Source: a bacterium (GTDB taxonomy: Bacteria > Patescibacteriota > Minisyncoccia > UBA6257 > UBA9933). From it: DNA of 64,000 bases. The stretch's first letter is position 1. Each line of letters begins with the position of its first letter. Of this stretch, positions 3,539 through 53,747 are shown one piece after another. The stretch is from contig JAJYWO010000010.1 in assembly GCA_021791445.1 (NCBI GenBank), positions 1,304 to 65,303 of the forward strand. The letters are read 5' to 3'. Position numbers and translations under genes: made by a program. Under the pieces are notes generated by a model, which saw only the letters and a program-made list of their open reading frames with translations, did no database searches and was not told where the DNA came from.

Positions 3539-6178
3539 TTAAACGCCAATCGTAATGCCGGATTCTTTGAAACCGAGTTTAATTTTTTTAGCATCTTTAA
3601 GTTCGCCTTTGATTATTTTATTCGCCAATTCGTCAAGAATCAATTTTTGAATCGCTCTTTTAATGGGCCGGGCGCCGTATTCCGAATCAAAACCGACATC
3701 AATAATGCGCTCTTTAAGGGAATTGTCCACGCTGATTTTAAACCCGCGCCCCGCCAATCTCTCTTTAAGTTCATCCAGTTGAAGGTCAACTATTTTGCCG
3801 ATTTCCGCTTTGGTAAGAGGATTGAAAATAATTATTTCATCCAGCCGATTGAGAAATTCCGGACGAAAAGTTTCTTGCAAAGCTTCCTGCGCGCGCTGTT
3901 TGAAACGCTCAAGCGCCTTATTGGTCCCATCCGCCTCGCCGCCGACATCAAATCCAAAACCCGCTTTTGAAGCTTCTTTGAAATATTCGCTGCCGACATT
4001 GGAAGTCAAAACAATTATGGAGTTTTTGAAATTGACGGTTTTGCCCTTGCCATCGGTGAGCCGGCCGTTATCCAAAACCTGAAGCAAAAGATTAAAAACT
4101 TCGGGATGCGCTTTTTCTATTTCATCAAAAAGAATCAGACTGTACGGCCGATGCCTTACGATTTCGGTCAATTGGCCGCCTTCTTCGTGTCCCACATAGC
4201 CGGGAGGAGAACCGATAAGCCGGCTTACGCTGTGCCGCTCCATATATTCAGACATATCAATCCGCACCAGCGCTTTTTCGTCATTAAACATAAATTCCGC
4301 CAAAGCCCGCACCAATTCGGTTTTGCCGACTCCGGTCGGACCTAAAAACATAAAACTGCCCAAGGGCCGATCTTCCGGCGCGAGTCCGGCGCGCTGGCGA
4401 CGCAAAGCGTGGGCAATGGCTTTAATCGCGTCCGTTTGGCCGATTACTCTTTGAGAAAGAACTTCTTCTATTTTGGAAAGTTTTTCCATTTCGGTTTGCA
4501 GCATCTTGTCAGTCGGCACGCCGGTCCAACGCGAAACAACCGCGGCAATATCTTCCTCGTCAACCACTTCCTTAATAAAACTATCGGACTTATTGGCCTT
4601 ATAAGTCTTATTTTCATACGCCTTAAATTCTTTCTCCGCTTGCGGCAATTCGCCGTAAAGTATTCGGGCTGTTTTTTCCAGATTGCCTTCGCGTTCCGCC
4701 ATCTCGGCGTCGCGCTTCAAATCTTCCACGCGCTTGCGCAAATTCCTGAAATTCTCAAAAGTTATTTTTTCTCCTTGCCATTTACCGGAGAGCCCGTCAT
4801 TTTTTTCTTTTAATTTCGCCAATTCCTTCTCAACTTCTTTTAATCGTGTTTTTGTTTTAGTCCCATTTCTATTTGATTCATTCAAAAGCGCGGATTTTTC
4901 TATTTCCAAACGGGTAATTTCCCTTCTGATTTTATCTATTTCCCGCGGAATGCTTTCGCTTTCCAATCTTCTGCCGGCTCCGGCTTCGTCAATCAAATCA
5001 ATCGCCTTATCCGGTAAAAACCTGTCGCTGATATAGCGACTGGAAAGATTCACCGCCGCCACAATCGCTTCGTCGCTGATGCGCAAACCATGATGCGATT
5101 CGTATTTTTCTTTCAAGCCGCGCAAAATGGCAACACTGTCTTCAATGGACGGCTCATCAACCATAATAGGCGCGAAGCGGCGTTCCAAAGCTGAATCTTT
5201 TTCAATATAACGCTGGTATTCTCTTATTGTGGTGGCGCCGATGGCCCGAAGTTCGCCGCGCGCCAAAGCCGGCTTCAATAAATTGGAAGCGTCAACCGTT
5301 CCTTCGGCCGCGCCCGCTCCCACAATCATATGAATTTCGTCTATAAATAGAATAATCTTGCCGCCGGACTGCTGGATTTCTTTCATAAACGCTTTTAATC
5401 TGTCTTCAAACTCGCCGCGGAATTTCGTACCCGCGATAAGCGCGCCCAAATCAAGCATCACGATTTCTTTGCCCTTCAACGGTTCCGGCACGTCTCCAGA
5501 AACAATTCTCTGCGCCAAACCTTCCACCACCGCGGTTTTGCCGACTCCGGGTTCGCCGATTAAAACCGGATTATTTTTCGTGCGACGGCTCAAAACCTGA
5601 ATAAGCCGACGAAGCTCTTCTTCGCGGCCGATAACCGGGTCAAGCTCGCCTTTCTTGGCGCGCTCCGTAAGATTGATGGCGTATTTTTCCAAAACCTGGA
5701 ATTTGCTTTCCGGCGCTTCATCGGTAATTCTTGCGGAACCGCGCAGCTGCGCCAAAATCCGGACCGCGGTTTCCTTGCGCAATCCGAAATTTTCCATGAT
5801 CGCGGCGGAAACAGAATTGCTTTCCAGAATCGCCAAAAGCATATGCTCGCAGGAAATAAATTCATCTTTTTGAATTGAAGCGATTTTCGCGGCCCTGTCC
5901 AAAACCCGCATTAATTCCTGCGCCAGATAAAGCTGAGCCGCGCCTCCGCCGCCGAAAATTTTCGGCTGTTTTTTCAATTCCTCATGAAGAATCTGGCTTA
6001 AATTTTCCAGATTAATTCCCGCCTTGATTATCAGCGGCCTGATTAAAGAACTTTCGTCCGAAAGCAAAGAAATCAATAAGTGGATAATTTTAAGCTCCCC
6101 GTGGTTTTCGCGAGCCGCTATGTCCTGGGCGTTTTGCAGCGCCTCCTGGGCCTTGATTGTAAAACGATGCATTTGCAT
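3539..6178 (-). CDS. clpB: ClpB / Hsp104-type AAA+ disaggregase. The track ORF extends to 6283; the start is probably [14 protein letters not shown] at 6178
   Basis: Two AAA+ modules with Walker A motifs [10 protein letters not shown] and [10 protein letters not shown], a Clp N-domain, and a long coiled-coil M-domain between NBD1 and NBD2. Total length ~880 aa. Confidence 0.93.
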
Positions 6179-10977: not shown

Positions 10978-11367
10978 TTAAATATTTTTATAATGTTTTA
11001 TTACATAATGATTATCTAAAAGTGTCAAGGCGATTAAGTCTATGCGCCAGCCTTTTTTGTCATCAACCAAATCTTGATTATGGCCGGCGTACAAAGACGC
11101 GGTTCTTTGGAGTTTTTGGAGTTTAGCGGCCGTAAGCTGGTCTTCGGCGGAAATGTGTTTATCATCGTTTTCCGTGTGTAATTTTTCCACTCCGCGAACG
11201 GTTTTTACTTCCACAAATACTAGGGTTCTATCCGGCGCTTTAACGATTATGTCTATCTCGCCCCACTTTTGCCGGAAATTCCGCTCAATCACCTTATATT
11301 TGTTTTTCACAAGATATCCACAGGCGATATTTTCGCCAAGTTGACCGGCGTAAGACCTCTGATTCAT
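10978..11367 (-). CDS. yraN: YraN family (UPF0102) endonuclease. The track start at 11472 is probably an artefact; the likely start is MNQRSYAGQLGEN at 11367
   Basis: GE.IA..YL...Y.V..RN.R...GEIDII....TLVFVEVK pattern typical of UPF0102. Confidence 0.7.
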   Translation of the reverse strand: MNQRSYAGQLGENIACGYLVKNKYKVIERNFRQKWGEIDIIVKAPDRTLVFVEVKTVRGVEKLHTENDDKHISAEDQLTAAKLQKLQRTASLYAGHNQDLVDDKKGWRIDLIALTLLDNHYVIKHYKNI

Positions 11368-11385
11368 ATAAGTTATGGTAAACCA

Positions 11386-11680
11386 TGTGTAATTTTTATA
11401 CAAGTAAAACGAGAAAGTGTTAAACAAAATAATGTTTAACAGTAACTTTTGTGTAATTTTTACACAAAACAAACGGCAAAAGCGTTAAACACTTAAATGT
11501 TTAACGCTAAGTTTGTGTAATTTTTACACACGTTTTTTGCCACCATTTAAAAACCCACATAAAATGCGTGTTTTTGAAAATGACCGTTTTTGATGTTTAA
11601 CACTTAAAAGTGTTAAACAAATATTTTGCGACAGATAAAGTGTTTAACACTTAGGCGTTAAACACTTTTTGTTTAACAGT
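11386..11680. repeat. Tandem array of ~64-bp units (11386, 11450, 11514, then degenerate). Each unit contains the palindrome TGTGTAAtttttTACACA, and the array also carries multiple GTTAAACA / TGTTTAAC inverted pairs
   Basis: Three TGTGTAATTTTTA(C/T)ACA sites exactly 64 bp apart. Units 1 and 2 align at ~75% identity. More than 10 GTTTAAC-type half-sites continue to 11680. Confidence 0.75.
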
Positions 11681-11687
11681 TTAATGA

Positions 11688-11710
11688 AGGCCTCCGCAAG
11701 GCCTTCAAAT
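11688..11710 (-). terminator. Rho-independent terminator hairpin GAAGGCCTCCGCAAGGCCTTC downstream of the receiver gene. An identical 25-nt sequence recurs at 41586-41612
   Basis: Perfect 8-bp GC stem followed by an A/T run. Duplicate copy elsewhere in the window. Confidence 0.7.
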
Positions 11711-11723
11711 AAAAAACGGCGCC

Positions 11724-12095
11724 CTAATCAAGCAGCGCCGTAAACTTCTTAAGTTTCGTCAATAGGTGATGAGGATGGAACGGTTTATGAATAAAATCAT
11801 CAGCCCCAGCTTCAATGGCTTCTTTTTTTATATCCTCGCTGCTCATCAGGATAATCCCAATATCCGAATCCGGATAAGAACTTTTTATTTTCTTTATCAG
11901 TTCTATCCCCGACATTCCCGGCATTTGCCAATCCGTAATAACAACATCCGGAATCTTCTCTGAAATTTTTTTCAAAGCCTCGCAACCATTTTCGGCCAAT
12001 CTAACCTCAAAGCCGAAAAGATGAAGAATGTCCTGCAACAGTGTCCTCATAGAAGAATTGTCATCTACAACCAAAATATTGAGCATTTTTTCCAT
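11724..12095 (-). CDS. Stand-alone CheY-like response-regulator receiver domain (123 aa, no output domain)
   Basis: VVDDNSSMR...DVVITDWQMPGMSG with the phospho-acceptor Asp, and ILMSSED. Confidence 0.85.
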   Translation of the reverse strand: MEKMLNILVVDDNSSMRTLLQDILHLFGFEVRLAENGCEALKKISEKIPDVVITDWQMPGMSGIELIKKIKSSYPDSDIGIILMSSEDIKKEAIEAGADDFIHKPFHPHHLLTKLKKFTALLD

Positions 12096-12187
12096 GCGCG
12101 CACCCCTTTACGAATTTAAGAATTTAAATTTTACCGTTAAAAACGGTCAAAGAACTTATTATAAGATAGACTAATTTCTATATTTTG

Positions 12188-12763
12188 TCAATAGTTAAAA
12201 TTTTGCCACAAATTAAAATCAAGCTCCAATTTTATTTCTTCTTTGCCGCCTTTTTGAGGAATCATTAAATATCCTTGTTTCTTCGCAAGTTCATATAATT
12301 CTTTGGTGATCTTTACGTCGTTCAAACAATAATTTTTCAGTTCTTCAATTTTGCCTTCGCGATATAAAATACCGGCGTCCAAACTATGGCCGTTTTTGCC
12401 ATAACCGAGATTGGTTTTTGCCAAAATATCCAAACCCACCCGCTTGCCGAGATTAAATTCAATTTCATCTAAAATATCCAAGTGTGGGATGGAAAAAATA
12501 TCTCCGCCAGAAGTATTACTGAAATGCTTTTGCAAAACCGGCAAGTCAAAACGGCTTATGCTAAATCCGATTATCATTCCGGCGTTTTTTATCATCTCCA
12601 TCGCCGCCGCGAATTCATTTTCGTCAAACGCGAAAAACTTATCCCGATTATGGGAATAAAGTCCGATTAAAGAAACTTCCAAGGCGTCGAAATTATTTTC
12701 GCCGACCTCCTGAAAAGTGTTTTTTGTCTCAATGTCTAAAACAAGAGTGTCTTTTTCTTCCAA
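12188..12763 (-). CDS. DEDDh-type 3'-5' exonuclease (DnaQ/RNase T-like)
   Basis: Exo I motif LVLDIETKN and Exo III motif HSLDAGILY. Confidence 0.65.
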   Translation of the reverse strand: MEEKDTLVLDIETKNTFQEVGENNFDALEVSLIGLYSHNRDKFFAFDENEFAAAMEMIKNAGMIIGFSISRFDLPVLQKHFSNTSGGDIFSIPHLDILDEIEFNLGKRVGLDILAKTNLGYGKNGHSLDAGILYREGKIEELKNYCLNDVKITKELYELAKKQGYLMIPQKGGKEEIKLELDFNLWQNFNY

Positions 12764-41587: not shown

Positions 41588-41612
41588 ATGAAGGCCTCCG
41601 CAAGGCCTTCAT
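41588..41612. terminator. Bidirectional terminator hairpin GAAGGCCTCCGCAAGGCCTTC between the convergent xerC and copA genes. Identical to 11688-11710
   Basis: Perfect hairpin flanked by A/T runs. Confidence 0.7.
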
Positions 41613-43789
41613 TTGTAATATTTCATTGTTAGCGCGCTTAAGACCACACTCACCGAGGAAAACGCCATTGCCGCGGCGGCGATAGCCGGATTAAGCAGCC
41701 AGCCGAAAAACGGGTAAAGGATGCCGGCGGCAATCGGGATGCCGGCGATGTTGTAAAAGAAAGCCCAGAAAAGATTTTGTTTGATTTTTCGCAATGTGTA
41801 AGCGCTTAAATTAATGGCGGAGATGGCGTCGCGTAAATCGTTTTTAACCAGAATAATCTGGCCGCTTTCAATGGCGATGTCCGAACCCGAACCGACTGCA
41901 ATTCCCAAATTGGCTTGCGTTAAGGCCGGCGCGTCGTTGATGCCGTCGCCGACAAAAGCCACGATTTCTCCCTGCGCTTGCAGGTTTTTTATTTCCTGCG
42001 ATTTTTCCTGAGGCAGGACTTCAGCCAATATTTTTTCTATGCCAAGCTGTTTGGCAATGGCTTCAGCGGTTCTTTTATTGTCGCCGGTAATCATCGCCGT
42101 TTTTTTGCCGGCCTCGCGCAGTTTTTTAACGGCTTCAATGGAAGTTTCTTTAAGCGTGTCCGCCGCGGCGATTAAGCCGATTATTTCTTTGTCTGCGGCG
42201 AGAATCATCACGGTTTTCCCTTGTTGTTCCAAATTTGAGATATTTTTTTCAATTTCATCGCTTATATTTATATTGAAACCGGCCATTAAATTTTTATTGC
42301 CGATTAAAATTTTTTGATTTTTAATTTCCCCTTTTGCTCCTTTTCCCGGAATCGCCTCAAAATTTTCAACTTCAAACAATCCCAGATTGTTTTTTTTCGC
42401 CTCGTCAACAATCGCTTGCGCCAAGGGATGTTCGGATTTTTTCTCCAAACTCGCCGCCAGTTTTAAAACATCGTTTTTTGCAATTTCCATAATATCCGTT
42501 ACTGTCGGTTCGCCGCGGGTCAAAGTTCCGGTTTTGTCAAAAACAACCATAGTGATTTTTTTGGCGATTTCCAAAGCGTCGGCGCTTTTGATTAAAATTC
42601 CTTTTTGCGCCGCTAAGCCCGTTCCCATCATTATCGCCGTGGGAGTCGCCAAGCCCAAGGCGCAGGGGCAGGCGATAATCAAAACCGTGACAAAAATCAC
42701 TAAGCTGAATGTGGCGCTTTGTCCAGTTAAAAACCAGATAATGGCGGCCAACACAGCGATAGCAATAACACTGGGCGTGAAATACAGCGAGATTTTATCA
42801 ACCAAAAGCTGAATCGGCGCTTTTGATTCCATAGCTTCCTGAACCACTTTGATGATTTGCGCCAAAATCGTATCTTTGCCAATTCTTTTCGCTTCAATTT
42901 TCAGAAAGCCGGTTTTATTGATGGTCGCGCCGATAACATCGTCTCCAACTTTTTTTTCAACCGGAATGCTTTCGCCGGTAATCATTTTTTCGTCAACTCC
43001 CGAATATCCTTCAATGACTTTGCCGTCAACCGGAATTTTTTCTCCGGGCTTTACCAAAACAATATCGCCGATTTTTATTTCCGCGATGTTGATTTTTATT
43101 TCTTTGCCGTCTCTTATGATAACCGCTTCCTTCGGTTGGAGGCCGATGAGTTTTTTAATCGCCTCGTTAGTTTTGCCTTTGGTTTTGGCTTCAAGATATT
43201 TGCCGAGGGCGATGAAAATCAGAATCAAAGCCGCGCTTTCAAAATACAAATCTCCGGAAACCGATAATACTAAAATAATCAGGCTGTAAAAATAAGCCAC
43301 GGCAGTGCCGATGAAAATCAAAGAATCCATATTGGGCATAAACCGGAGCAAGCTTTTAAATCCCGATTTCCAAATGTCAAAACAAGCGGCGATAATCGCG
43401 GTTGCCAAAACAAGCTGAATAATATCACTTGCTTGTTTTGCCAAGGGCAATTTTGGCAATCCGACAAGCGACGCCATTACAGCGTAAATAATCGGCAAGC
43501 CGAAAATAAGCGAAAAAACAAAGCGGTTTCTCAATTTTTTCGCCGGTTCTTCGGGATGATGGTGCTCGTGGTCTATTTCGTTTTCTTCCATCGCTCCGTA
43601 GCCGAGTTCGCCGATGATTTTTTTAATCGTGTCTTTGCCGATTTTTTTCTCGTCAAATTCAATACTGGCTTTTTCCGAAGCAAAATTCACGCCGGCATTT
43701 TTTATACCCTCGGTTTTTTTCAAAACGTGTTCAATGTTGGCGGCGCACGACGCGCAATCCATATCGGTAATTTTGAGAATTGTTTTCAT
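41609..43789 (-). CDS. copA: Copper-translocating P1B-type ATPase
   Basis: N-terminal HMA motif [14 protein letters not shown] in TM6 ([12 protein letters not shown]), [15 protein letters not shown]. Confidence 0.93.
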
Positions 43790-43795
43790 ATTATT

Positions 43796-44827
43796 TTATA
43801 TTCCGCAGCCGCTTTGTTGCTGAGGAGCCGGAGCGCTGTCAATGCCGCAGCCGCTTCCGCCGGAAGATTTTTGGGTTTTCGCGGTTTGCGAAGAGATTTT
43901 TCTGTATCCGGACGCGCTGGAATAATCAGCTCCGAGAATTTCAATTGGATCAACATTTTCCCATTCAATTCCTTTATTTTTCATATAAGTCGCGATGGTG
44001 AGATAAGTGTCCGGAAACCAGTAGGAATTTACGGCCAAAGCCGCATTCCACATTTCTTGTTCGCTCGCGTTTTGCGAAGCCATCAGCTCCAGAAGTCCAA
44101 GCATCGCCATCCCGTGGTTGCAATCCGGAAAATGCGTTGAATTGCCGCAGCACGGCCGGTAAACGCCTTTGGAAACTTTTTCCACCAGTGCCTGTTGTTC
44201 GTCGGTCAATTCAAGAAGCCGGTGCTTGCTGTAATGTTCCATTGCGTTTCCCTTGGCGATTGTCCATCCAGCGGTTGAGGCGAAATTTTCGGCTCCGCCG
44301 TAGCGCGGGTCCGCCATTTCTCCGTTTTCCAGAATCGGATTTTTGTTTGCCAAGCCGAGCGCCCACAGCAGATTCAGCAGATATCCGGAATTTTCATTTG
44401 TTATTCTGAGTTTGCCGTTGTTTTTCCCGAGGAGCAGATTCTCGTATTCTTTGGCGAACGCGTCGCGCTGTTCGTATATTGATTTGAATTTGTCGGCGTC
44501 AATGGCGCCTGAATTCACGAGTTGAAGTCCGAGATCGCCCCAGACAGCGGGCAAAACAACGCCTTCGGACGGCAGAACTTTTTCTTCAAGTTCGGAAATT
44601 GTTGTTTCGGAGACGGAGGCATTTTGCGTTTTCGGCAGGGTGCCGGATTTCAGTCCTACGGAATACACCCATGTTCCGGAAATCAATATCGCTGAAATAA
44701 GAATGCTTGTGCCGATGCCGATATTGAAGCCCGAGGATTTTTCCGCGCCGGCGTTTTGAATTGTTTCTTCCGCGTTTTGCGCTTGCACATCTTCAATTAT
44801 TTGATTTTGATTTTTTTGTTCTTCCAT
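43796..44827 (-). CDS. Membrane-anchored Cys-containing protein (CCGNSTHFPDCNHG, C-terminal SGCGIDSAPAPQQQSGCGI). Possibly a metal/thiol-redox partner in the copA operon
   Basis: ORF, single N-terminal TM. Position in the operon 46124->41609. Confidence 0.45.
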   Translation of the reverse strand: MEEQKNQNQIIEDVQAQNAEETIQNAGAEKSSGFNIGIGTSILISAILISGTWVYSVGLKSGTLPKTQNASVSETTISELEEKVLPSEGVVLPAVWGDLGLQLVNSGAIDADKFKSIYEQRDAFAKEYENLLLGKNNGKLRITNENSGYLLNLLWALGLANKNPILENGEMADPRYGGAENFASTAGWTIAKGNAMEHYSKHRLLELTDEQQALVEKVSKGVYRPCCGNSTHFPDCNHGMAMLGLLELMASQNASEQEMWNAALAVNSYWFPDTYLTIATYMKNKGIEWENVDPIEILGADYSSASGYRKISSQTAKTQKSSGGSGCGIDSAPAPQQQSGCGI

Positions 44828-44835
44828 AAGTTTAT

Positions 44836-45618
44836 TTAGAAAGCGAAAATGGCGATGCCGAGAATAATCATGGCAATGCCACTGATCGTTTTCATTTGTT
44901 TATTATTGACTCTTTTCCATTCCATCACTTTTTCCGTAAGAGATTTATCGCTGGTTATCAGCAGAATCGCGACAAGCGGAAGAATGAAAATCAGATTGTA
45001 CAGCAGAAGATAGCCGATTCCGGAATAATAAGTGTTCTGGTCATGAAGCAGTCCTAGCACCATCAGATACGGGCCGCCGGTGCAGGGAAATTCGCAGAGC
45101 CCGACAAGGACGCCCAGAAAAAACGCGGCCAATAAGGACGTTTTATCCATAAGTTCCGCCATTTTATTGTGCGCGATTTTCGGAATTTTTATTCTTATCG
45201 GAAACGATGGAAACAGCGCGCTTATGGCGCTTATCGCTCCGACGGCGATTAGAAGGACTGCTCCGACTTTTGCCATAAAATGCGGTGTGTTGAAAAGATG
45301 GAGAACCTGCAGAATTCCGAGCCCAATAAGGACATAAACGGCGAGAATTCCCAAAATGTAAAACCCTCCGATTTTCAAAATATCCGAACGCGTTTTTTCG
45401 ATGGTGAAAAGAAAAGCGATTGTCAGGAGCAGGATTGAAAACGCGCAGGGATTGACGCTGTCAATTATCGCCGCAACGCTTACGAGCGGCAGAAGCCATT
45501 TGCCGTGATCGCTTATATTCCACAAGGCGGCTGTTCCAATATTGCTTTCTTTCAGAAATATTGCCGCGCCGAAAACTAACAATGCGATTGCGGAAATAAA
45601 TATCAGTTTTTTGCTCAT
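44836..45618 (-). CDS. ccdA: Cytochrome c biogenesis / thiol-disulfide transporter CcdA (DsbD transmembrane domain family)
   Basis: Paired Cys in TM segments (SVNPCAFS and CEFPCTGGPY), 6-8 TM topology. Confidence 0.8.
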   Translation of the reverse strand: MSKKLIFISAIALLVFGAAIFLKESNIGTAALWNISDHGKWLLPLVSVAAIIDSVNPCAFSILLLTIAFLFTIEKTRSDILKIGGFYILGILAVYVLIGLGILQVLHLFNTPHFMAKVGAVLLIAVGAISAISALFPSFPIRIKIPKIAHNKMAELMDKTSLLAAFFLGVLVGLCEFPCTGGPYLMVLGLLHDQNTYYSGIGYLLLYNLIFILPLVAILLITSDKSLTEKVMEWKRVNNKQMKTISGIAMIILGIAIFAF

Positions 45619-46124
45619 TATGGAGTTACAACGGCGGTTAATTGAAGTTCAATCGGGTCGCCCGCGTTGTTTTCAATTATTACCGCCCTTTGGATTTTGC
45701 CAACGCCGGCCGGACCATGCGCCGCCGGGTCAAAAACGGCTTCTATTGTCGCTTCTTCGTTGGAATCGATTATCTGATTTATCACCGGAATAACGCCATG
45801 GCCGGGCATTCCGTAAGGCCCCATTTTTTTGCCCTTAATCATAAGTTCGGCGGTTGTGCACATGCACGAAGTGTATATCTTGCTTATAGTCGTTGCTTCA
45901 TTTCCGTTATTTTTAATTTTAAAATCGTATTTTACTTTTCCGGCGGTCATTGAAATTTCGCCGAAATCATAATTATTAACTCCTTCAACAACCAATGTTC
46001 CGTTATTTTGCGCCGGAATCGCGGATTTGTTTTTTCCGCTGCTCTGCTGTTTTGGTTCCGCGAACCAGATGATTCCGCCGAGCAGCGCGGCCGCGACAAC
46101 GGCGCTGATGACAATTTTGTTCAT
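45618..46124 (-). CDS. Secreted DUF1573-family protein
   Basis: YDFGEI...G......F.IKNNGN..L.I..V..SCMCT pattern. Confidence 0.6.
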   Translation of the reverse strand: MNKIVISAVVAAALLGGIIWFAEPKQQSSGKNKSAIPAQNNGTLVVEGVNNYDFGEISMTAGKVKYDFKIKNNGNEATTISKIYTSCMCTTAELMIKGKKMGPYGMPGHGVIPVINQIIDSNEEATIEAVFDPAAHGPAGVGKIQRAVIIENNAGDPIELQLTAVVTP

Positions 46125-46752: not shown

Positions 46753-47175
46753 ATGTGGATAATCTACGCTTTTATTTCTTCAATCGCCGCGGCCTTGGTC
46801 GCCGTATTCGCCAAGCTTGGGCTGAAAGAAATTGATTCCACTTTGGCGACGATTGTTCGCTCCATGATAATGGCGCTGTTTTTGGTGGCCACGGGATTTT
46901 TTCTGAAAAAATTTGAGGGGTTTTCTTTGGGTTCTTTCAGTCAAAAAGATTGGATTTTAATTGTCGCGGCCGGCATTGCCGGAGCGATTTCTTGGTTGTT
47001 TTATTTTCTCGCGCTTAAAAGCGGTCCCGCAACCGCCACGGTGGCGATAGACAGATTGAGCATTGTTTTTGTCGTGATTCTCGCCGCCTTATTCTTGGGC
47101 GAGGCGTTCGGCTGGAAATCCGCCCTTGGCGCGCTTTTAATGGTTCTCGGCGCCCTGTTGATTGTTTTGAAGTAG
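46753..47175 (+). CDS. Small 4-TM transporter of the DMT superfamily (EamA-like)
   Basis: 140 aa, four TM helices, EamA-like hydrophobic pattern. Confidence 0.55.
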   Translation: MWIIYAFISSIAAALVAVFAKLGLKEIDSTLATIVRSMIMALFLVATGFFLKKFEGFSLGSFSQKDWILIVAAGIAGAISWLFYFLALKSGPATATVAIDRLSIVFVVILAALFLGEAFGWKSALGALLMVLGALLIVLK

Positions 47176-47469: not shown

Positions 47470-47600
47470 CGCGGGCTTGACTTTTGGGGTGAGATATGCT
47501 TATATAAATATAGTTTAAACACGGGATTGAACTTTGAAAAACATTCGTCATAGACGGATAAAATGATAGATAGAAAATTTTAGATAAGGAGGATAAGGAG
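47470..47600 (+). promoter_or_regulatory. Conserved promoter + 5' leader element, copy 1 of 3: cgcgggcTTGACTtttggggtgagatatgcTTATATAaat, a leader hairpin (cgtc-ata-gacg), ggataaaatgatagatagaaaa, then the SD ggaggataaggag
   Basis: Near-identical ~45-nt promoter core in all three copies. The leader hairpin shows compensatory changes between copies (cgtc/gacg vs ccgcc/ggcgg vs cagcgg/ccgctg). Confidence 0.75.
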
Positions 47601-48642: not shown

Positions 48643-49365
48643 TTGACCATAACGAATCCTCTGGCGCATCGTAACGCGTCAGAGGATTTTTTTGCTAAAT
48701 CGAAAATTATAAGTTATATTAATAAAATCATGCTTGTTATACCCATAAAATTTCAATTTAATATTGAATCCGAGGTGCGCAGAGTAAGGGAGACTCTTGA
48801 TAATTTTAAATGGCTTACCAAAAATAATTACAGGTTTCTTTTGCCGAACGGCATAAAGGATTCTAAAGACATAAAAATAGAAATGATTAGAAAGTTAGTG
48901 GAAGATGAGTATGACTTGAATATTTATCAGATTGCCGAGAGCGCCATTTTAAAATCATGGGAAGGGAACAGTGGTTTAATGAGAAAAATTAACCAAAAGA
49001 TGAATGGTTCGTATATGTTGGATGAGGTCACTGTAATTTTAACCAGATATGGCACTCAGGGAAGCTATATGACACCTAATTCAGCGATTATAAATATTTC
49101 TAATATTCCTTCCGAGTTTCTAATTAAAACTGTTATACACGAGTCCTTGCATTTAATGATTGAACATTTAATCAAAAAATATTCAGTTGAGCATTGGGTT
49201 AAGGAACGTATAGTAGATTTAATAATGGATTTTGAATATAAATCTCGTTTTAAAATGCAGTCTGCGCCTAATTGGGTTTTTATTACAGATGAGATATTTA
49301 AAGGGTATTATCCGGATATGAATTTAATAATAGAAGGGGCAGCTAAAATTTTTCCTGATAAGTAA
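48643..49365 (+). CDS. HExxH-motif protein (putative zinc metallopeptidase), paralog 1 of 3
   Basis: TVIHESLHLMIEH. Translationally coupled to the rSAM gene, with a 1-nt gap. Confidence 0.6.
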   Translation: MTITNPLAHRNASEDFFAKSKIISYINKIMLVIPIKFQFNIESEVRRVRETLDNFKWLTKNNYRFLLPNGIKDSKDIKIEMIRKLVEDEYDLNIYQIAESAILKSWEGNSGLMRKINQKMNGSYMLDEVTVILTRYGTQGSYMTPNSAIINISNIPSEFLIKTVIHESLHLMIEHLIKKYSVEHWVKERIVDLIMDFEYKSRFKMQSAPNWVFITDEIFKGYYPDMNLIIEGAAKIFPDK

Positions 49366-49383: not shown

Positions 49384-49420
49384 AGCCCTCAGCACATTTA
49401 ATTAAAAAATGTGCCGAGGG
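49384..49420. terminator. Bidirectional terminator gccctcagcacattt-aattaaa-aaatgtgccgaggg
   Basis: 14-15-bp stem with a T-run on the minus strand and A/T on the plus strand. Sits between convergent genes. Confidence 0.75.
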
Positions 49421-49445: not shown

Positions 49446-49607
49446 CTCACTCGTCTGCACAGTCGCAATTGCATTCGCATGCTCCCCAGCCGCCATCACA
49501 ATTACTGGTTATACAGTCACAATCACCGCGGATTTGAGGGGAAAAGCCTTTGACGCTTCTCGTGCATGGTATTTCCGTTGTCTTAAGGAATCTAACGAAT
49601 TTATCCA
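49446..49607 (-). CDS. Unannotated 53-aa Cys/Asp-rich precursor-like peptide (SCIFF/ranthipeptide-like): VDKFVRFLKTTEIPCTRSVKGFSPQIRGDCDCITSNCDGGWGACECNCDCADE
   Basis: Minus strand: SD AAAGGAGGTGA, 7 nt, GTG start, 8 Cys concentrated in the C-terminal 24 residues, stop followed by a strong terminator. A TTGTAT-17-TAATAT promoter lies upstream. The plus-strand ORF 49411..49692 on the opposite strand is judged spurious. Confidence 0.7.
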
Positions 49608-49681
49608 CTATTTCTCACCTCCTTTCTATTTGAATTTTCTAATAAAAATATTAACATTATTTTTTGATTTATACAATAACC

Positions 49682-49906
49682 CTATTTTTTAAGATCTTCA
49701 AATAATTTAGTATTTTTTGGATTATTCAGATAATGTTTAAAATGTTTTATTTCGTCGACTAAAATCTTTTCAAATTTACTTATCCAGATTTTATTAAAAC
49801 GCGGTTGAAATATTTCAAAAATTTTTTTAAATTCGTCTTTTTTGACAAGTCCTTCCAATTCGTTCCAAGCTTCTTTTTCCGGATATGTAAAAAATATCTG
49901 TCCCAA
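49682..49906 (-). CDS. Small hypothetical Lys/Glu-rich protein (74 aa), upstream of the precursor peptide. It overlaps the 5' end of 49842..50618 on the other strand, so one of the two starts is wrong
   Basis: ORF with plausible composition. No motif recognised. Confidence 0.35.
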   Translation of the reverse strand: MGQIFFTYPEKEAWNELEGLVKKDEFKKIFEIFQPRFNKIWISKFEKILVDEIKHFKHYLNNPKNTKLFEDLKK

Positions 49907-50618
49907 ATATTTTGACTATTGTGATGATGGCAGGAATTTGGAATGGGCGATTTTGAGAAAATATCCGGAATTTAAAAAATATAAAAGAAATAAATTAGAT
50001 GTCAATGAAAAGCAAATTTCAATATTTGTAAATTCTATTTATCAAAAGAACAATAAAATAATCAGAAAAAATCTTGATTTATATAAAAAAAGTTGGGCGA
50101 AACTGGGGAAAGACTATTTTGTTTTAGTTAGCCAGATTTTCGGCGATTATAAATGGCCATTAGGAAAATATATTGTTTATCTGACAATTTGGGGGATGCA
50201 CCCGCGTTTTTTAGAAGATAAAACTTTTCAAATCCCTTTTCGCCATAAGAATGAAAAATATATAAATGTGATTATTGCCCACGAAATGCTTCATTTTATA
50301 TTTTATGATTATTTTTATAATAAATTTCCCCAATATAAATCAAACAAATACAATTTTTTCGTATGGAACATATCGGAAATTTTTAACAATATAGCGCAGG
50401 ATTCTCCGCAATGGATTAAAATTTTTAAAGCTAAATCTATGCCTTATCCGGAACATAAAAAAATAGTGAATAAATTAAAGAAAAAATTTTATAAAAAAAG
50501 CGTTATTATAGCTAAAGATTTAATAAAAGAAATTATAAAAAATAAAGATTTTTTACCAATTTTCGCGGGCTTGACTTTTGGGGTGAGATATGCTTATATA
50601 AATATAATTAAGGGATAG
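49842..50618 (+). CDS. HExxH-motif protein, paralog 2 of 3. The TTG start from the track is uncertain. Its C-terminus is translated through the conserved promoter element of the next operon
   Basis: NVIIAHEMLHFIFYDY. The C-terminus FAGLTFGVRYAYINI is encoded by the cgcgggcttgacttttgggg... promoter repeat. Confidence 0.55.
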   Translation: MTSPSNSFQASFSGYVKNICPKYFDYCDDGRNLEWAILRKYPEFKKYKRNKLDVNEKQISIFVNSIYQKNNKIIRKNLDLYKKSWAKLGKDYFVLVSQIFGDYKWPLGKYIVYLTIWGMHPRFLEDKTFQIPFRHKNEKYINVIIAHEMLHFIFYDYFYNKFPQYKSNKYNFFVWNISEIFNNIAQDSPQWIKIFKAKSMPYPEHKKIVNKLKKKFYKKSVIIAKDLIKEIIKNKDFLPIFAGLTFGVRYAYINIIKG

Positions 50619-50691
50619 TTCTTAAAAACAAACAGCGGTTTTCAGCCGCTGAAAAATAAGATAGAAAAATTTAGAAATGAGGAGGTAAATC
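50561..50691 (+). promoter_or_regulatory. Conserved promoter + leader element, copy 2 (TTGACT at 50571-50576). Leader hairpin cagcgg-ttttcag-ccgctg, then aaaataagatagaaaa, then SD gaggaggtaa
   Basis: See copy 1. Confidence 0.75.
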
Positions 50692-51999
50692 ATGTTATAT
50701 CAGACACTTTCGGCACCAATAAATTGCCAGATAGAGCTTACGACTTCTTGTAGTCATAATTGTTCTCATTGCTATAATTTCTGGCGGAAGGATATTGAAA
50801 GAGTCAATAATTTTCTTAAAGAAACAGATGTTAGTAAAATTATACGGAAAATAGCGGACGCAAAAGTATTTGATATCATAATTACCGGCGGTGAGCCGTT
50901 AATAAAATATGATATTCTCATACATTGTATTAAGGAGGCGCGAAGCGCAGGATTGGGCATTTCTTTGAATTCAAATTTAGTTTCGTTAACCAGGGCTCGC
51001 GCGCGCGAATTGCGTTCTTTGGGTATAAAACAAATACTCACGTCTTTAATGGGTCCATCAGCGGAAATACATGATAAAATTGCCCAATCAAAAGGGTCAT
51101 TTGAAAGAGTTGTGAGAAATATACAATTAGCCAATGAAGAAAAGATTAATATTGTCGCCAATATGGTAGTTTCAAAAATTAATCTTTCTTTTGTTAGGGA
51201 CACGGCAAAGTTTGTTTCTTCTATTGGAATTAAGAAGTTTGCGGCTACCAAAGCGGGATGTCCGGGAAATTGTTTCGATTTCTCGCAATTCTCATTATCA
51301 AAAGAAGAATTTAAGAAATATTTACAAGATTTACAAGAAGTTGGCGAAGAGCTCGGTATTGCAATTGATGCGCTTGAGGGATATCCATTGTGTGGAATCG
51401 GCGACCTTAATCGTTATTATTCATTTATTGGAAGGAAATGTTATGCTGGCGTAACTACGATAACTATTGCCAGCGATGGCGAAGTTAGACCATGTTCCCA
51501 TCTTGATGTTTCGTATGGAAATTTACTTACAAAAGATTTGGCGGAGATTTGGACACGCATGGCTCCATGGAGAAATGGCGCATACTTACCAAATACTTGT
51601 AAAAGTTGTAAAATTTTACATGTGTGCGGTGGCGGTTGTCGTATGGAGGCGAAGATGCGCAGCGGGAATATTTCAGGAATGGATCCGTACAGTATGCCCA
51701 ACGATATTGAAAAGAGTTTATATTCACTTCAAGAACATCAGAAAAATATGTTTTATAAGGCGCCATTGAAAAATTTTGAAATAAGGCCTTATCGCTATCG
51801 ACATGAATCTTTTGGAGCCGTTGTTCTTGTGGGGAAATCTCGAGCATTTCTAAGTGCAACCGGTCTTAAACTCTTTAAGCAGTTTGAAATATCGTCTACG
51901 TATTCATTACAAGACGAAAGAATTCAGTGGGGCGCTTTGAATCCGGTCGATTTTATTCGCGGCCTTATTCAAAGAGGAATCGCTGTTGGAAAACAGTGA
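50692..51999 (+). CDS. Radical SAM enzyme with a SPASM domain, second maturase
   Basis: CSHNCSHC (Cx3Cx2C) and C-terminal CKSCKILHVCGGGC (Cx2Cx5Cx3C), plus CGIGD...C auxiliary cluster residues. Confidence 0.85.
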   Translation: MLYQTLSAPINCQIELTTSCSHNCSHCYNFWRKDIERVNNFLKETDVSKIIRKIADAKVFDIIITGGEPLIKYDILIHCIKEARSAGLGISLNSNLVSLTRARARELRSLGIKQILTSLMGPSAEIHDKIAQSKGSFERVVRNIQLANEEKINIVANMVVSKINLSFVRDTAKFVSSIGIKKFAATKAGCPGNCFDFSQFSLSKEEFKKYLQDLQEVGEELGIAIDALEGYPLCGIGDLNRYYSFIGRKCYAGVTTITIASDGEVRPCSHLDVSYGNLLTKDLAEIWTRMAPWRNGAYLPNTCKSCKILHVCGGGCRMEAKMRSGNISGMDPYSMPNDIEKSLYSLQEHQKNMFYKAPLKNFEIRPYRYRHESFGAVVLVGKSRAFLSATGLKLFKQFEISSTYSLQDERIQWGALNPVDFIRGLIQRGIAVGKQ

Positions 52000-52033
52000 T
52001 TATGTAAAAATATCTCAAAAGGAGGTAATCGCT

Positions 52034-52162
52034 ATGCCAAAAGATGACGGTTTTGTTTCATTCGTTCAAATAGAAAAAAACCAAACAGAAAATCTTACGG
52101 CTGTTCAAAACTGCGACTGTTATGATTGCGACTACAACTGCGAAGAGTGCGATAGCAAATGA
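52034..52162 (+). CDS. Unannotated 42-aa Cys/Asp-rich precursor-like peptide: MPKDDGFVSFVQIEKNQTENLTAVQNCDCYDCDYNCEECDSK
   Basis: SD AAAGGAGGTAA 7 nt before the ATG, directly downstream of the rSAM stop. Five Cys in the last 16 residues, with a CDC motif shared with peptide A. A terminator follows. Confidence 0.75.
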   Translation: MPKDDGFVSFVQIEKNQTENLTAVQNCDCYDCDYNCEECDSK

Positions 52163-52184
52163 TCATAGATCATTTGTTGATCTC

Positions 52185-52214
52185 AAAGAGATAAAGGATT
52201 TCCTTTATCTCTTT
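52185..52214. terminator. Bidirectional terminator aaagagataaagga-ttt-cctttatctcttt plus a T run
   Basis: 13-14-bp stem. Sits between precursor B (+) and the HExxH paralog 3 (-). Confidence 0.75.
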
Positions 52215-53080
52215 TTTATTTGGATCGGTTTTTGATATTTAAGTAGAATATGCGGTTTTTTATATAATTGATTTCCATAGCGGTTCCAAACGGCGCGTTT
52301 TTTTGAAAAATCTTTATTAATTGGCAAAAGAATATTTAATATTTCTTGCAGGAAAGTTTTAAAAGTTTTTTTATTTTTTATTTTTATAATTTGATAATAT
52401 TCATTAATAAATTCAGTAAAAGAAATAATTACGCCATCGGACTTTTTAATTTGCAGGTCGCGAATTTCCGGATTGCCTTGATAATTTTTTAATTTAAGAA
52501 TTTTATTAAGAGGTTTTTGGTTAAGCAATACGGCGGTCAAAGTTTCTTTAAAATAGTTTTTAAAATCTTCTGGGACTTTTTTTCGTTTCAATTTTTTAAG
52601 AAAATTAAAAAGAATGAAATGCGATATTTCATGGATAGCAATAAAAAGAATATCTCTGCCACCTTTTCTTTTTATCTGTTCAAGAATTGAAAAATAAAAA
52701 ACATTGTTGCCAAAAGGAGAAAATGGAAGAATTGTCGGCATGGCTGTGTAGTCGGGGTGATTTTTTGGCCATTGATAATCCATTAATTTCGCCAATTTGA
52801 TGAGCGCTTTTTTTTCTTTTTCTTTTAATATTTTTTTCGATTGAACAATAATTTTTTTGATTTTTTTATCGTTTTTTTTATAAAAATCTTTAATGAATTC
52901 TTTTATAATAGTTTTTTCTTTATTTTTATTTTTCTCTGTTTTTAACAAAATTTCCAATTCGGGAAAGGATTTAAAAATAATAAATTTATGTTGAGGATAA
53001 TAATGATGGTGTAAAAATTTTAAAAATAGATCAACTTCTTTATTTAAGTCATATGTAATTTTAATAGAAGGAATTTTCAT
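52205..53080 (-). CDS. HExxH-motif protein, paralog 3 of 3
   Basis: LFIAIHEISHFILFNF, Lys-rich, 291 aa. SD aaaggaaa lies upstream of the ATG at 53080. Confidence 0.55.
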   Translation of the reverse strand: MKIPSIKITYDLNKEVDLFLKFLHHHYYPQHKFIIFKSFPELEILLKTEKNKNKEKTIIKEFIKDFYKKNDKKIKKIIVQSKKILKEKEKKALIKLAKLMDYQWPKNHPDYTAMPTILPFSPFGNNVFYFSILEQIKRKGGRDILFIAIHEISHFILFNFLKKLKRKKVPEDFKNYFKETLTAVLLNQKPLNKILKLKNYQGNPEIRDLQIKKSDGVIISFTEFINEYYQIIKIKNKKTFKTFLQEILNILLPINKDFSKKRAVWNRYGNQLYKKPHILLKYQKPIQIKKR

Positions 53081-53120: not shown

Positions 53121-53255
53121 CGCGGACTTGACTTTTGGGGCGAGATATGCTTATATAAATACAATTTAAGCAAGGGGTTGGACTTTGAAAAACATCCGCC
53201 ATGGGCGGATAAAATGATAGATAGAAAAAATTCAGAAAAATAGGAGGATAAGGAG
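53121..53255 (+). promoter_or_regulatory. Conserved promoter + leader element, copy 3 (TTGACT at 53128-53133). Leader hairpin ccgcc-atg-ggcgg, ggataaaatgatagatagaaaa, SD ggaggataaggag
   Basis: See copy 1. Confidence 0.75.
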
Positions 53256-53747
53256 ATGACGAAGAATATTATAGGATTTCTGTTAGTTTTCTGCATTTTC
53301 GCCATTGGCGCAAATTTAATGGCGGAAGAGGATTATGGTAATGTTGGCCCGACGTTAAAGGATTTCATTATTGCTAAAGAAGGAGATAATTTGAGGCTCA
53401 GCTTCTCTTTCTTTAACGTCAAAGGCGGGTTGGCTGCAGCCACTTTCACAGTTGGTTATGTTATTGAAAGGGGTGAGTCGACCATAGAGTCAAATGTGAT
53501 GACCAATCTCGGAATTGCTCCGGATTTGGCGAAGGTGTCTAAATTAAAGTCAAAAATAGACATTTTCCAAATTGAAACCGGTGAATTTCAAGTTGTCATT
53601 CCGTGGCTCCGGGCCCAGAGTATCAAAGATTTGGAGTTAAAATCAGGCGATAAGATTAAATATCTTATCTACTTGACGGATAAGAACGGCAGAAAATCAA
53701 ACACCGTCTTCTGTGAATATTTATTCATAGAAGAATGGAACATTTAA
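53256..53747 (+). CDS. Secreted hypothetical protein (signal peptide)
   Basis: MTKNIIGFLLVFCIFAIGANLMA signal. Confidence 0.5.
   Translation: MTKNIIGFLLVFCIFAIGANLMAEEDYGNVGPTLKDFIIAKEGDNLRLSFSFFNVKGGLAAATFTVGYVIERGESTIESNVMTNLGIAPDLAKVSKLKSKIDIFQIETGEFQVVIPWLRAQSIKDLELKSGDKIKYLIYLTDKNGRKSNTVFCEYLFIEEWNI

Follow-up and report, generated by a model that had tools for sequence, protein, structure and literature searches.

Small peptides that are modified by radical S-adenosylmethionine (SAM)/SPASM enzymes are already known as a kind of system, and a handful of described examples bear on the locus considered here. QhpD is a radical SAM/SPASM enzyme that makes several intrapeptide Cys-to-Asp/Glu thioethers in QhpC, a small Cys/Asp/Glu-containing polypeptide that serves as the gamma subunit of quinohemoprotein amine dehydrogenase and is encoded within the amine dehydrogenase operon. 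In the SCIFF system (CteA/CteB) a peptide with its Cys residues clustered towards the C-terminus is paired one-to-one with such an enzyme, and in the solved structures of CteB (PDB 5wgg), SuiB and SkfB the domain that binds the peptide is N-terminal. The mycofactocin (MftA/MftB/MftC) and pyrroloquinoline quinone (PQQ; PqqA/PqqD/PqqE) pathways likewise combine a small peptide, a radical SAM/SPASM enzyme and a PqqD-type domain. PapB, the maturase of PapA (freyrasin), forms Cys-Asp beta-thioethers in CX3D motifs and also accepts CXnD (n = 0-6) and Glu (PMC9413430). In clusters for peptides that are made on ribosomes and altered post-translationally (RiPPs), HExxH proteins can hydroxylate Asp or Asn and even cleave backbones oxidatively, and one of them, ChlH, hydroxylates Asp and His (PMC12636437). 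Here we compare these systems with a gene of 42 codons, which we call peptide B, and with the radical SAM/SPASM gene directly upstream of it (rSAM2), both of which lie in a 64,000-nucleotide stretch of a Patescibacteriota contig (JAJYWO010000010.1, positions 1,304 to 65,303 of the forward strand, assembly GCA_021791445.1); this whole stretch is referred to below as the window. Taken together, the conservation of the gene, its synteny with the enzyme, the RiPP-like anatomy of the peptide and the SPASM fold and Cys ligands of the enzyme lead us to propose, with a probability of roughly 0.7, that peptide B is a RiPP precursor and rSAM2 its dedicated maturase, which would install several cross-links in the core of the peptide under the guidance of a leader.

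The translation of peptide B is MPKDDGFVSFVQIEKNQTENLTAVQNCDCYDCDYNCEECDSK (ATG 52034-52036 to TGA 52160-52162), and by the comparative evidence given below it is a real and conserved gene that is under purifying selection and syntenic with both an enzyme family and a family of HExxH proteins (coordinates of all features are collected in Table 1). The AGGAGG core of its Shine-Dalgarno (SD) sequence is contained in AAAGGAGGTAA at 52018-52028. Throughout the window, an SD-like hexamer 4-10 nt before the start is found for only three open reading frames (ORFs) of 25-99 codons, and among the short ORFs the full AAGGAGGT sequence precedes only peptide B and a second short gene on the minus strand, peptide A (start at 49608). 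An alternative in-frame TTG at 51986 would give a 58-aa version and is the start used by GenBank; ATG 52034 is the better start because of its strong SD sequence and because it agrees with the N-termini of the homologues. The earlier note on this DNA, which was made from the sequence alone, had placed the gene immediately downstream of the enzyme behind an SD sequence, and in both respects it was right; its distances need small corrections, the spacer between the rSAM2 stop (TGA 51997-51999) and the ATG being 34 nt rather than 35, and the 7 nt given for the SD sequence being approximate (8 nt from the AGGAGG core). The strong terminator that it saw beyond the gene was recovered by a terminator scan as a 13-bp stem with a 4-nt loop and a T-run, the fold of which beats 200 of 200 shuffles (z = -3.5). 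Its description of the gene as unannotated holds for the ORF track that it had to hand; in GenBank the identical sequence is listed as hypothetical protein MCL5073262.1, beside the "radical SAM protein" MCL5073263.1, and the 42-aa form has been called by gene callers in ENA.

A search of 5.8 billion proteins gave three homologues of peptide B (44-49 aa, 53-63% identity), each of them encoded directly 3' of a radical SAM/SPASM gene. The same order is found in a Candidatus Kaiserbacteria genome, in which an enzyme with 69% identity to rSAM2 is followed by MQKSNDGFVSFVQAEASQTGTFVAASECDNSCHDCNVNCEECDNN. When five orthologous peptides are aligned, the motifs DGFVSFV and C..C.DC..NCEECD are invariant; in the second of these the constant residues are C27, C29, D31, C32, N35, C36, E37, E38, C39 and D40. 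Among the five genes the proportion of nonsynonymous differences (pN) is 0.20-0.30 as against 0.62-0.94 for synonymous differences (pS), with synonymous sites near saturation, and omega is ~0.2 in the two pairs of orthologues that permit an estimate. Third codon positions vary the most, and the residues of the invariant motifs are encoded by differing synonymous codons. Since pN lies far below pS and the codons of the invariant motifs change synonymously, selection is acting on the protein and not on the DNA or RNA.

At a threshold of E <= 1e-20 rSAM2 has 608 relatives. Nearly all of the best 120 are full length with 42-73% identity, and all of the source-named taxa among them are Patescibacteria, with the exception of the window's own bin. 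The public bin that holds the contig (MCL5073262.1, MCL5073263.1 and MCL5073265.1; window 49447-52162) is labelled Actinobacteria/Actinomycetota, and this label is probably wrong; the named homologues of the three genes of the cassette (peptide, radical SAM enzyme and HExxH protein) are all from Patescibacteria, namely Paceibacterota, Kaiserbacteria, Niyogibacteria, Colwellbacteria and Minisyncoccia.

When metagenome contigs were scanned with an alignment, 285 stretches were confirmed and 80 loci obtained; synteny was counted over 84 loci with rSAM2 homologues, 76 of them informative. Peptide genes were first detected by a script that reads just 3' of each radical SAM stop codon, where most loci have an ORF of 40-60 codons that follows an SD motif and encodes a C-terminus rich in Cys. 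A hidden Markov model (HMM) of the family, built from 46 peptides and run in six frames on every small ORF of every locus (6,291 ORFs), then gave one family peptide per cassette and no spurious match. By this measure a family peptide is present in 72 of the 76 informative loci: directly downstream of the radical SAM gene in 64 (50 non-redundant enzymes), and elsewhere in the locus, 1-2 kb away on the same strand, in 8 (6 enzymes). Eight further loci (8 enzymes) have no peptide but too short a downstream sequence, and four (4 enzymes) have none despite a sufficient flank. An SD-like motif stands before 50 of the 51 unique adjacent peptides, with a median spacer of ~18 nt, and the peptide has been retained while the enzymes diverged to 37-73% identity. 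The earlier note had made the case for the gene depend on its conservation in homologous clusters, and this is what the counts document: across many genomes a small ORF is genetically coupled to an enzyme of the peptide-modifying kind, as expected of a RiPP precursor and its maturase. A profile of four peptide sequences matched only 12 proteins at E <= 1e-3 among 1.84 billion representatives, a number that is an underestimate because peptides of 40-50 aa rarely reach significance in a database of that size.

Several peculiarities of these loci and searches deserve mention in their own right. One of the four loci that have enough flank and no family peptide, L062, encodes directly 3' of its radical SAM gene (4284-4934) a member of a 216-aa protein family that occupies this position in nine loci and may be an alternative partner or substrate. 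On Kaiserbacteria contig L001 a second, divergent cassette (11121-12630) is found ~5 kb from the first, with genes for insertion sequence-type transposases between the two; it encodes a 451-aa radical SAM enzyme followed by a peptide ending in NGFLSLHYHDQDRNMVSDQCDCESCQNCDGTSCNCHCHST, with a His-containing core, and a similar situation is seen in L016, L029 and L064. An antisense ORF of ~100-160 aa within rSAM2 (window 50772-51251, minus strand) recurs across 29 loci; it is no gene but a shadow cast by the conserved coding sequence. Finally, the protein clusters at 90% identity that contain peptides A and B also hold unrelated proteins of 423-584 aa; these mixed clusters are an artefact of clustering short low-complexity sequences, and the size of such a cluster is not the size of the family.

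The anatomy of the peptide family can be described from 61 unique members, with the core counted from the first Cys. They range in length from 40 to 74 aa (median 49) and contain 3-12 Cys (median 6). An N-terminal motif, GF[VELSI][STP][LIFV], which can be summarised as GF(V/E)S(L/I/F), occurs in 50 of the 61. Cys makes up 28% of the cores, Asp 22%, and Asn and Glu 9% each; the cores have only 26 basic residues in 1,333 and a mean net charge of -6.4, and they often end in CYDC(D/N)xNCEECD; C[YFH]DC is present in 39 peptides and NC[EQ]EC[DE] in 32. Spacings from one Cys to another are mostly 2-4 residues, and the commonest residue both at Cys+1 (46%) and at Cys+4 (35%) is Asp. The putative core of peptide B itself holds five Cys and five Asp, with CX3D pairs at C27/D31, C29/D33 and C36/D40. 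Peptides that undergo leader-guided modification usually join a conserved N-terminal motif to a core of variable length and pattern, and this is the layout expected of a RiPP precursor. Known precursor families were rejected as a source of names: peptide B, peptide A and five other peptides of the family gave no match to Pfam or NCBIfam models down to E = 10.

The product of rSAM2 has the fold and the Cys ligands of the SPASM enzymes that modify peptides. Pfam recognises Radical_SAM, Fer4_12 and SPASM domains, an invariant CX3CX2C is found at residues 20-27, and eight further Cys are invariant, including a CX2CX5CX3C at 303-316, so that both the radical SAM motif and the C-terminal Cys-rich region that together define such enzymes are present. 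The closest folds are those of anSME, CteB, ChlB, SuiB and SkfB, and a Foldseek search with the whole model matched only radical SAM cores. There is no N-terminal domain, the radical SAM motif starting at residue 20, and the enzyme has instead an extra C-terminal domain (~residues 336-435) that is modelled as a long helix, four strands and more helices (strands and following helices at 361-434) and that carries conserved R..E.FG and FL(N/D/S) motifs. The mycofactocin chaperone MftB (TIGR03967) is the sole NCBIfam family to recur among matches to this domain, being found in 5 of 24 homologues with a best E of 6e-4, which is a modest indication that the leader may dock there.

Any attempt to name the chemistry of rSAM2 from its sequence relatives is discouraged by the NCBIfam scores, which were compared over the 25 best families (the weakest at 59.5 bits). 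The top matches are AhbD at 121 bits (cut-off 500), NirJ2 at 115 and PqqE at 105 (381), followed lower down by the sactipeptide maturases StsB (NF045574, 84.7 against 625) and SkfB (TIGR04403, 80.2 against 300), by MftC (82 against 265) and by the PapB-type maturase (NF047865, 64.1 against a curated cut-off of 340). The SCIFF maturase (TIGR03974), with a cut-off of 425 bits, is outside the 25 and therefore stays under 59.5 bits. Because these scores are so far below the cut-offs, the chemistry of the enzyme is not transferable by homology, and assignment to a named radical SAM family was rejected.

The third conserved gene of the cassette, H291, is convergent to the peptide gene and has a homologue in this orientation in 46 loci (tblastn); all-against-all clustering of the flanking ORFs likewise gave the H291 family, in 44-46 loci, as the only recurrent neighbour of the pair. 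All 87 members of this family are "hypothetical" proteins, all are from Patescibacteria and none has a Pfam domain. Invariant in them are H150 E151 x S153 H154, E179, N203 and W265, the Glu being placed 25 residues after the HExxH motif. The best fold matches of H291 are gluzincin peptidases, and it has what defines a gluzincin, namely a zincin fold that bears HExxH and, further downstream, a Glu ligand. It has no sequence relatives in PDB or Pfam, and there is no match at E <= 0.01 between H291 and the model of the mod_HExxH/alpha-ketoglutarate (alpha-KG) HExxH proteins (IPR026337; ChlH, BpmH and PflC). A role as leader peptidase is the more likely reading, although HExxH proteins of RiPP clusters can also be hydroxylases or oxidative cleavers of the backbone (PMC12636437). 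The window encodes a paralogue of H291, H258, which is related to the H291 family with an hhalign probability of 96.7% (E 4.5e-10); its longest ORF runs from 49842, and gene callers give it 221 aa.

We envisage that the leader of peptide B would dock on rSAM2, most plausibly on the extra, MftB/PqqD-like domain at its C-terminus, and that the SPASM core of the enzyme would then abstract hydrogen atoms within the acidic, Cys-rich core CDCYDCDYNCEECD so as to close several small rings. The likeliest bond, of the kind made in ranthipeptides and sactipeptides, would join a Cys sulfur to a carbon of Asp, Asn or Glu, either in the side chain or at the alpha position. H291 would then process the product, most likely by cutting off the leader as a zinc peptidase. 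For thioethers between Cys and Asp/Asn/Glu as the chemistry of the core we would allow, approximately, a little under an even chance. They are favoured because nothing in the core is universal except Cys and residues with a carboxylate or amide, because Asp is enriched at Cys+1 and Cys+4, and because in CX3D motifs PapB is known to join Cys to Asp at the beta-carbon (PMC9413430). The composition of the core together with its CX3D spacing suggests the ranthipeptide class, in which the thioether is made to a non-alpha carbon.

Among the described systems, PapA/PapB is similar in its small precursor, in which a leader precedes a core that repeats Cys...Asp pairs, in the adjacent radical SAM/SPASM maturase and in the CX3D spacing, which peptide B has three times; given what PapB accepts (CXnD with n = 0-6, and Glu; PMC9413430), the family's C-D, CxD and CxxxD patterns would lie within its range. 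The differences are considerable, in that rSAM2 reaches 64 bits against a cut-off of 340 and has an extra C-terminal domain in place of an N-terminal extension, the leader motif is another one, and both the HExxH partner and the phylum set the cassette apart; moreover, the motifs of peptide B are interleaved rather than spaced, and its Cys residues far exceed one link per Asp. SCIFF peptides resemble the family in size (~45 aa), in their five or six C-terminally clustered Cys and conserved N-terminal region, in the one-to-one association with a radical SAM/SPASM enzyme, in being widespread within one lineage and in the want of an obvious exporter. Unlike them, the peptide B family has an Asp-dominated core and its enzyme gene comes first, and the SCIFF precursor model (TIGR03973) matches none of seven family peptides at E <= 10. 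The putative peptide-recognition domain of rSAM2 is also at the other end of the enzyme, that of CteB being N-terminal.

ChlA/ChlB-ChlH offers a parallel for a radical SAM/SPASM enzyme and an HExxH protein that act on one precursor. However, ChlB-ChlH is a cyclophane-forming radical SAM enzyme fused to an alpha-KG HExxH hydroxylase, whereas H291 is separate, convergently transcribed and without sequence match to that hydroxylase family, and peptide B is rich in Cys and Asp rather than built on aromatic-x-x motifs. The mycofactocin and PQQ pathways share with the cassette the small peptide, the radical SAM/SPASM enzyme (PqqE and MftC being sequence relatives of rSAM2) and, through the MftB matches of 5 of the 24 C-terminal domains, perhaps the PqqD-type domain. 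They differ in that the putative binding domain is here fused to the C-terminus of rSAM2, in that the scores fall far below the cut-offs, and in the nature of the core, which is variable and Cys-rich instead of a fixed reactive dipeptide; no other genes of these pathways are present. In the case of QhpC/QhpD, nothing of the amine dehydrogenase operon is found here and QhpD is outside the 25 best families for rSAM2.

Explanations other than Cys-to-Asp/Asn/Glu thioethers on a leader-guided precursor must also be weighed. The main alternative keeps the precursor and the enzyme and changes the chemistry, so that the links would be C-C bonds of the cyclophane type, or other non-thioether bonds, and the HExxH protein an alpha-KG/Fe(II)-dependent beta-hydroxylase of Asp or Asn, as in the ChlB-ChlH system. 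We consider this unlikely, if well worth keeping in view. An aromatic residue is retained in the C[YFH]DC motif of 39 of the 61 peptides, but many members of the family have none while Cys and Asp are universal. The abundance of Asp and Asn in the core, which are known targets of such hydroxylases, and the precedent of HExxH proteins adjacent or fused to radical SAM enzymes that are alpha-KG Asp/His hydroxylases, one of them also backbone-cleaving (PMC12636437), have to be set against the failure of H291 to match the alpha-KG HExxH model at E <= 0.01 and against the anoxic origin of some source samples (as read from the sample names), which makes an O2-dependent step less likely. Far less probable still is that the peptide gives rise to a small redox cofactor or other housekeeping molecule, in the manner of PqqA/PqqE or MftA/MftC. 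Such a role would account for the resemblance of the C-terminal domain to MftB, for PqqE and MftC being among the NCBIfam and PDB relatives of rSAM2, for the want of a conserved exporter or immunity gene and for the wide distribution of the cassette in organisms with very small genomes; yet precursors of cofactors keep a short invariant reactive site, whereas the core here has 3-12 Cys and varies in length and pattern, several divergent cassettes can be present in one genome (two in L001, and two types of peptide in the window), and the other genes typical of the PQQ and mycofactocin pathways are missing.

It would be more surprising again if the peptide were not modified at all and served as an acidic, Cys-rich metal-binding or thiol-redox protein, with rSAM2 next to it for the handling of, e.g., Fe-S clusters or copper. 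The Cys/Asp/Glu composition and the CxC and CxxC spacings do look like those of metal-binding proteins, and the cluster lies beside genes for a CopA-type ATPase, a CcdA-like protein and other Cys-rich proteins (41609-46124). However, these CopA/CcdA-like neighbours are conserved in no related locus, the pairing of peptide and radical SAM enzyme is near-obligatory (72/76 loci), and a conserved N-terminal motif set apart from a variable core is a hallmark of leader-guided modification. A chance open frame in the 3' untranslated region of rSAM2, which the shortness of the gene (42 codons) might suggest, is already refuted by the comparative data: the SD sequence is strong, the ORF has been kept across enzymes at 37-73% identity, pN is well below pS, and the invariant amino-acid motifs use varying codons.

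Some observations weigh against the proposal that rSAM2 cross-links peptide B, or against parts of it, and the modification itself is something that we infer entirely. The enzyme scores far under the cut-off of every named maturase family in NCBIfam, and its best scores there are with AhbD and NirJ2, which belong to haem pathways and do not act on peptides. At its C-terminus the extra domain is only weakly like a peptide-recognition element; a profile of the domain has no match among PDB sequences or in Pfam, PqqD included, and an hhalign comparison with a PqqD sequence, which is a weak test, gave a probability of 0.4%. Eight loci, one of them L039, have the peptide gene 1-2 kb from the enzyme and not beside it. 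No conserved transporter or immunity gene was found nearby by the clustering of flanking ORFs in the related loci. As for thioethers in particular, the aromatic residue of C[YFH]DC and the similarity in fold between rSAM2 and ChlB would fit C-C bonds.

The organization of the genes in the window points to a second peptide module beside the one just described. Upstream of rSAM2 lie a distant relative, rSAM1, which lacks the C-terminal domain and over the core is 23% identical to rSAM2, a gene for another HExxH protein, H240, which is apparently co-transcribed with rSAM1, and peptide A, with its own AAGGAGGT SD sequence and a terminator at 49420..49386. Membership of peptide A in the peptide B family was rejected: the family HMM gives ~2 bits for peptide A as compared to 52.9 bits for peptide B, which bears out the earlier note in its view that the two peptides are otherwise unrelated. 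A kinship of H240 with H291 is not supported either, there being no detectable relation of H240 to the H291 family. Close homologues of peptide A are P0238-P0240 and a copy in locus L039. This locus has the same seven genes in a rearranged order, with identities of 80% for rSAM1, 70% for H240 and 78% for peptide A, and with homologues of rSAM2, H291 and H258 and a B-type peptide; in it, the convergent orientation recurs both for peptide A relative to H240-rSAM1 and for the B-type peptide relative to the H291 homologue. The arrangement would fit two modules, each with its own substrate. The suggestion of the earlier note that two dedicated enzymes serve two substrates has good support in the case of rSAM2 and peptide B, and for rSAM1 and peptide A it draws on two loci (the window and L039); cross-reactivity between the modules is possible. 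Between peptide A and a strong minus-strand promoter-like site (50005..49978, 11/12 matches) lies a minus-strand ORF of 74 aa (58 aa in public gene calls; 49682-49906), which is shared with H258 in part if the H258 ORF is taken at its longest; it has no counterpart conserved in L039 and no family match, and may be a remnant or spurious.

Table 1. Positions of genes and signals of the two peptide modules, given in window coordinates
Feature	Position	Strand	Remarks
Peptide B gene	52034..52162	+	42 aa plus stop; proposed precursor peptide; read and translated
SD sequence AGGAGG of peptide B	52020..52025	+	8 nt 5' of the ATG
Codons of the invariant leader motif DGFVSFV (residues 5-11)	52046..52066	+	alignment of five orthologues
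Codons of the putative core CDCYDCDYNCEECDSK (residues 27-42)	52112..52159	+	sequence reading; putative leader/core boundary
Intrinsic-terminator hairpin	52185..52214	either	common to peptide B (+) and the convergent gene H291 (-)
rSAM2, radical SAM/SPASM enzyme, 435 aa	50692..51999	+	Pfam domains, Cys motifs
H291, HExxH protein, 291 aa	52205..53080	-	zincin-like fold; third conserved cassette gene
H258, second HExxH protein	49953..50618	+	H291 paralogue; start uncertain
Promoter-like block TTGACT-17 nt-TTATAT	50567..50606	+	upstream of rSAM2; one of three near-identical copies
5'-leader hairpin of the rSAM2-peptide B transcript	50633..50651	+	folding
rSAM1, radical SAM/SPASM enzyme, 346 aa	47601..48641	+	distant relative of rSAM2
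H240, 240 aa, HESLH motif	48643..49365	+	start 1 nt after rSAM1 stop; convergent to peptide A
Peptide A, 53 aa, MDKFVRFLKTTEIPCTRSVKGFSPQIRGDCDCITSNCDGGWGACECNCDCADE	49447..49608	-	second, separate precursor family

No terminator separates rSAM2 from peptide B. This, together with the promoter-like block upstream of the enzyme, makes it likely that the two genes form one short operon, with a predicted transcript from ~50610 to 52215. The block lies within GGGCTTGACTTTTGGGGTGAGATATGCTTATATAAATATA, and the 40-mer that contains it is found on the plus strand at 47473-47512, 50567-50606 and 53124-53163 (0, 0 and 3 mismatches; no such copies are expected by chance), upstream of rSAM1, of rSAM2 and of a 163-aa ORF at 53256, respectively. 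All three copies are followed at the same place by a hairpin of 7-8 bp, with stems that differ in sequence, and then by an AGGAGG SD sequence, which suggests that both peptide modules may be co-regulated with orf163/orf175, whose products look like secreted proteins or lipoproteins. None of the 85 related loci has the block, which is therefore specific to the genome of the window. The window's own flanking genes, too, are absent from all related loci. Exporters, immunity genes and regulators were considered as conserved neighbours and rejected, the clustering having returned only the radical SAM and H291 families and the antisense shadow ORF.

Close upstream of the peptide cluster, on the minus strand of the window (41609-46124), are genes for a CopA-type P-type ATPase of 726 aa, a CcdA-like membrane protein of 260 aa, a 343-aa protein with terminal Cys-rich motifs and a 168-aa protein. 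The CopA and CcdA names come from a reading of the translations; Pfam confirmed only an EamA protein (46753-47175). This copper/thiol-redox neighbourhood is not conserved beside the cassette in other loci.

The cassette is a family for which there is no model of the peptide or of the HExxH protein and only a generic radical SAM/SPASM description of the enzyme, so that annotation pipelines label its genes "hypothetical protein" and "radical SAM protein". Our literature search, which included the motif strings and left most subscription journals uncovered, found no description of it. What appears to be new is the combination of a recognition-like domain at the C-terminus of the enzyme, a hyper-acidic core of many Cys and Asp residues, an unclassified zincin-like partner and an apparent restriction to Patescibacteria. 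It is a tentative proposal, which we rate somewhat below an even chance, that the three genes represent a new, Patescibacteria-restricted class of modified peptide, with cross-links and a second processing step unlike those of the characterised ranthipeptides, sactipeptides and triceptides, and with a product that serves an episymbiotic way of life.

Some genome-mining surveys have reported few or no biosynthetic gene clusters in Patescibacteria (e.g., PMC11613949). Against these, the cassette has hundreds of members (608 relatives of the enzyme, 285 confirmed metagenome stretches) and is sometimes present in several copies per genome. With three genes and a 42-aa substrate it also makes a small and easily synthesised test system for radical chemistry on a Cys/Asp scaffold. 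If the proposal is true, the product would serve these ultra-small bacteria, for example in interaction with their hosts or in the capture of metals, and the cassette could show what role a specialised peptide plays in host-dependent organisms with minimal genomes.

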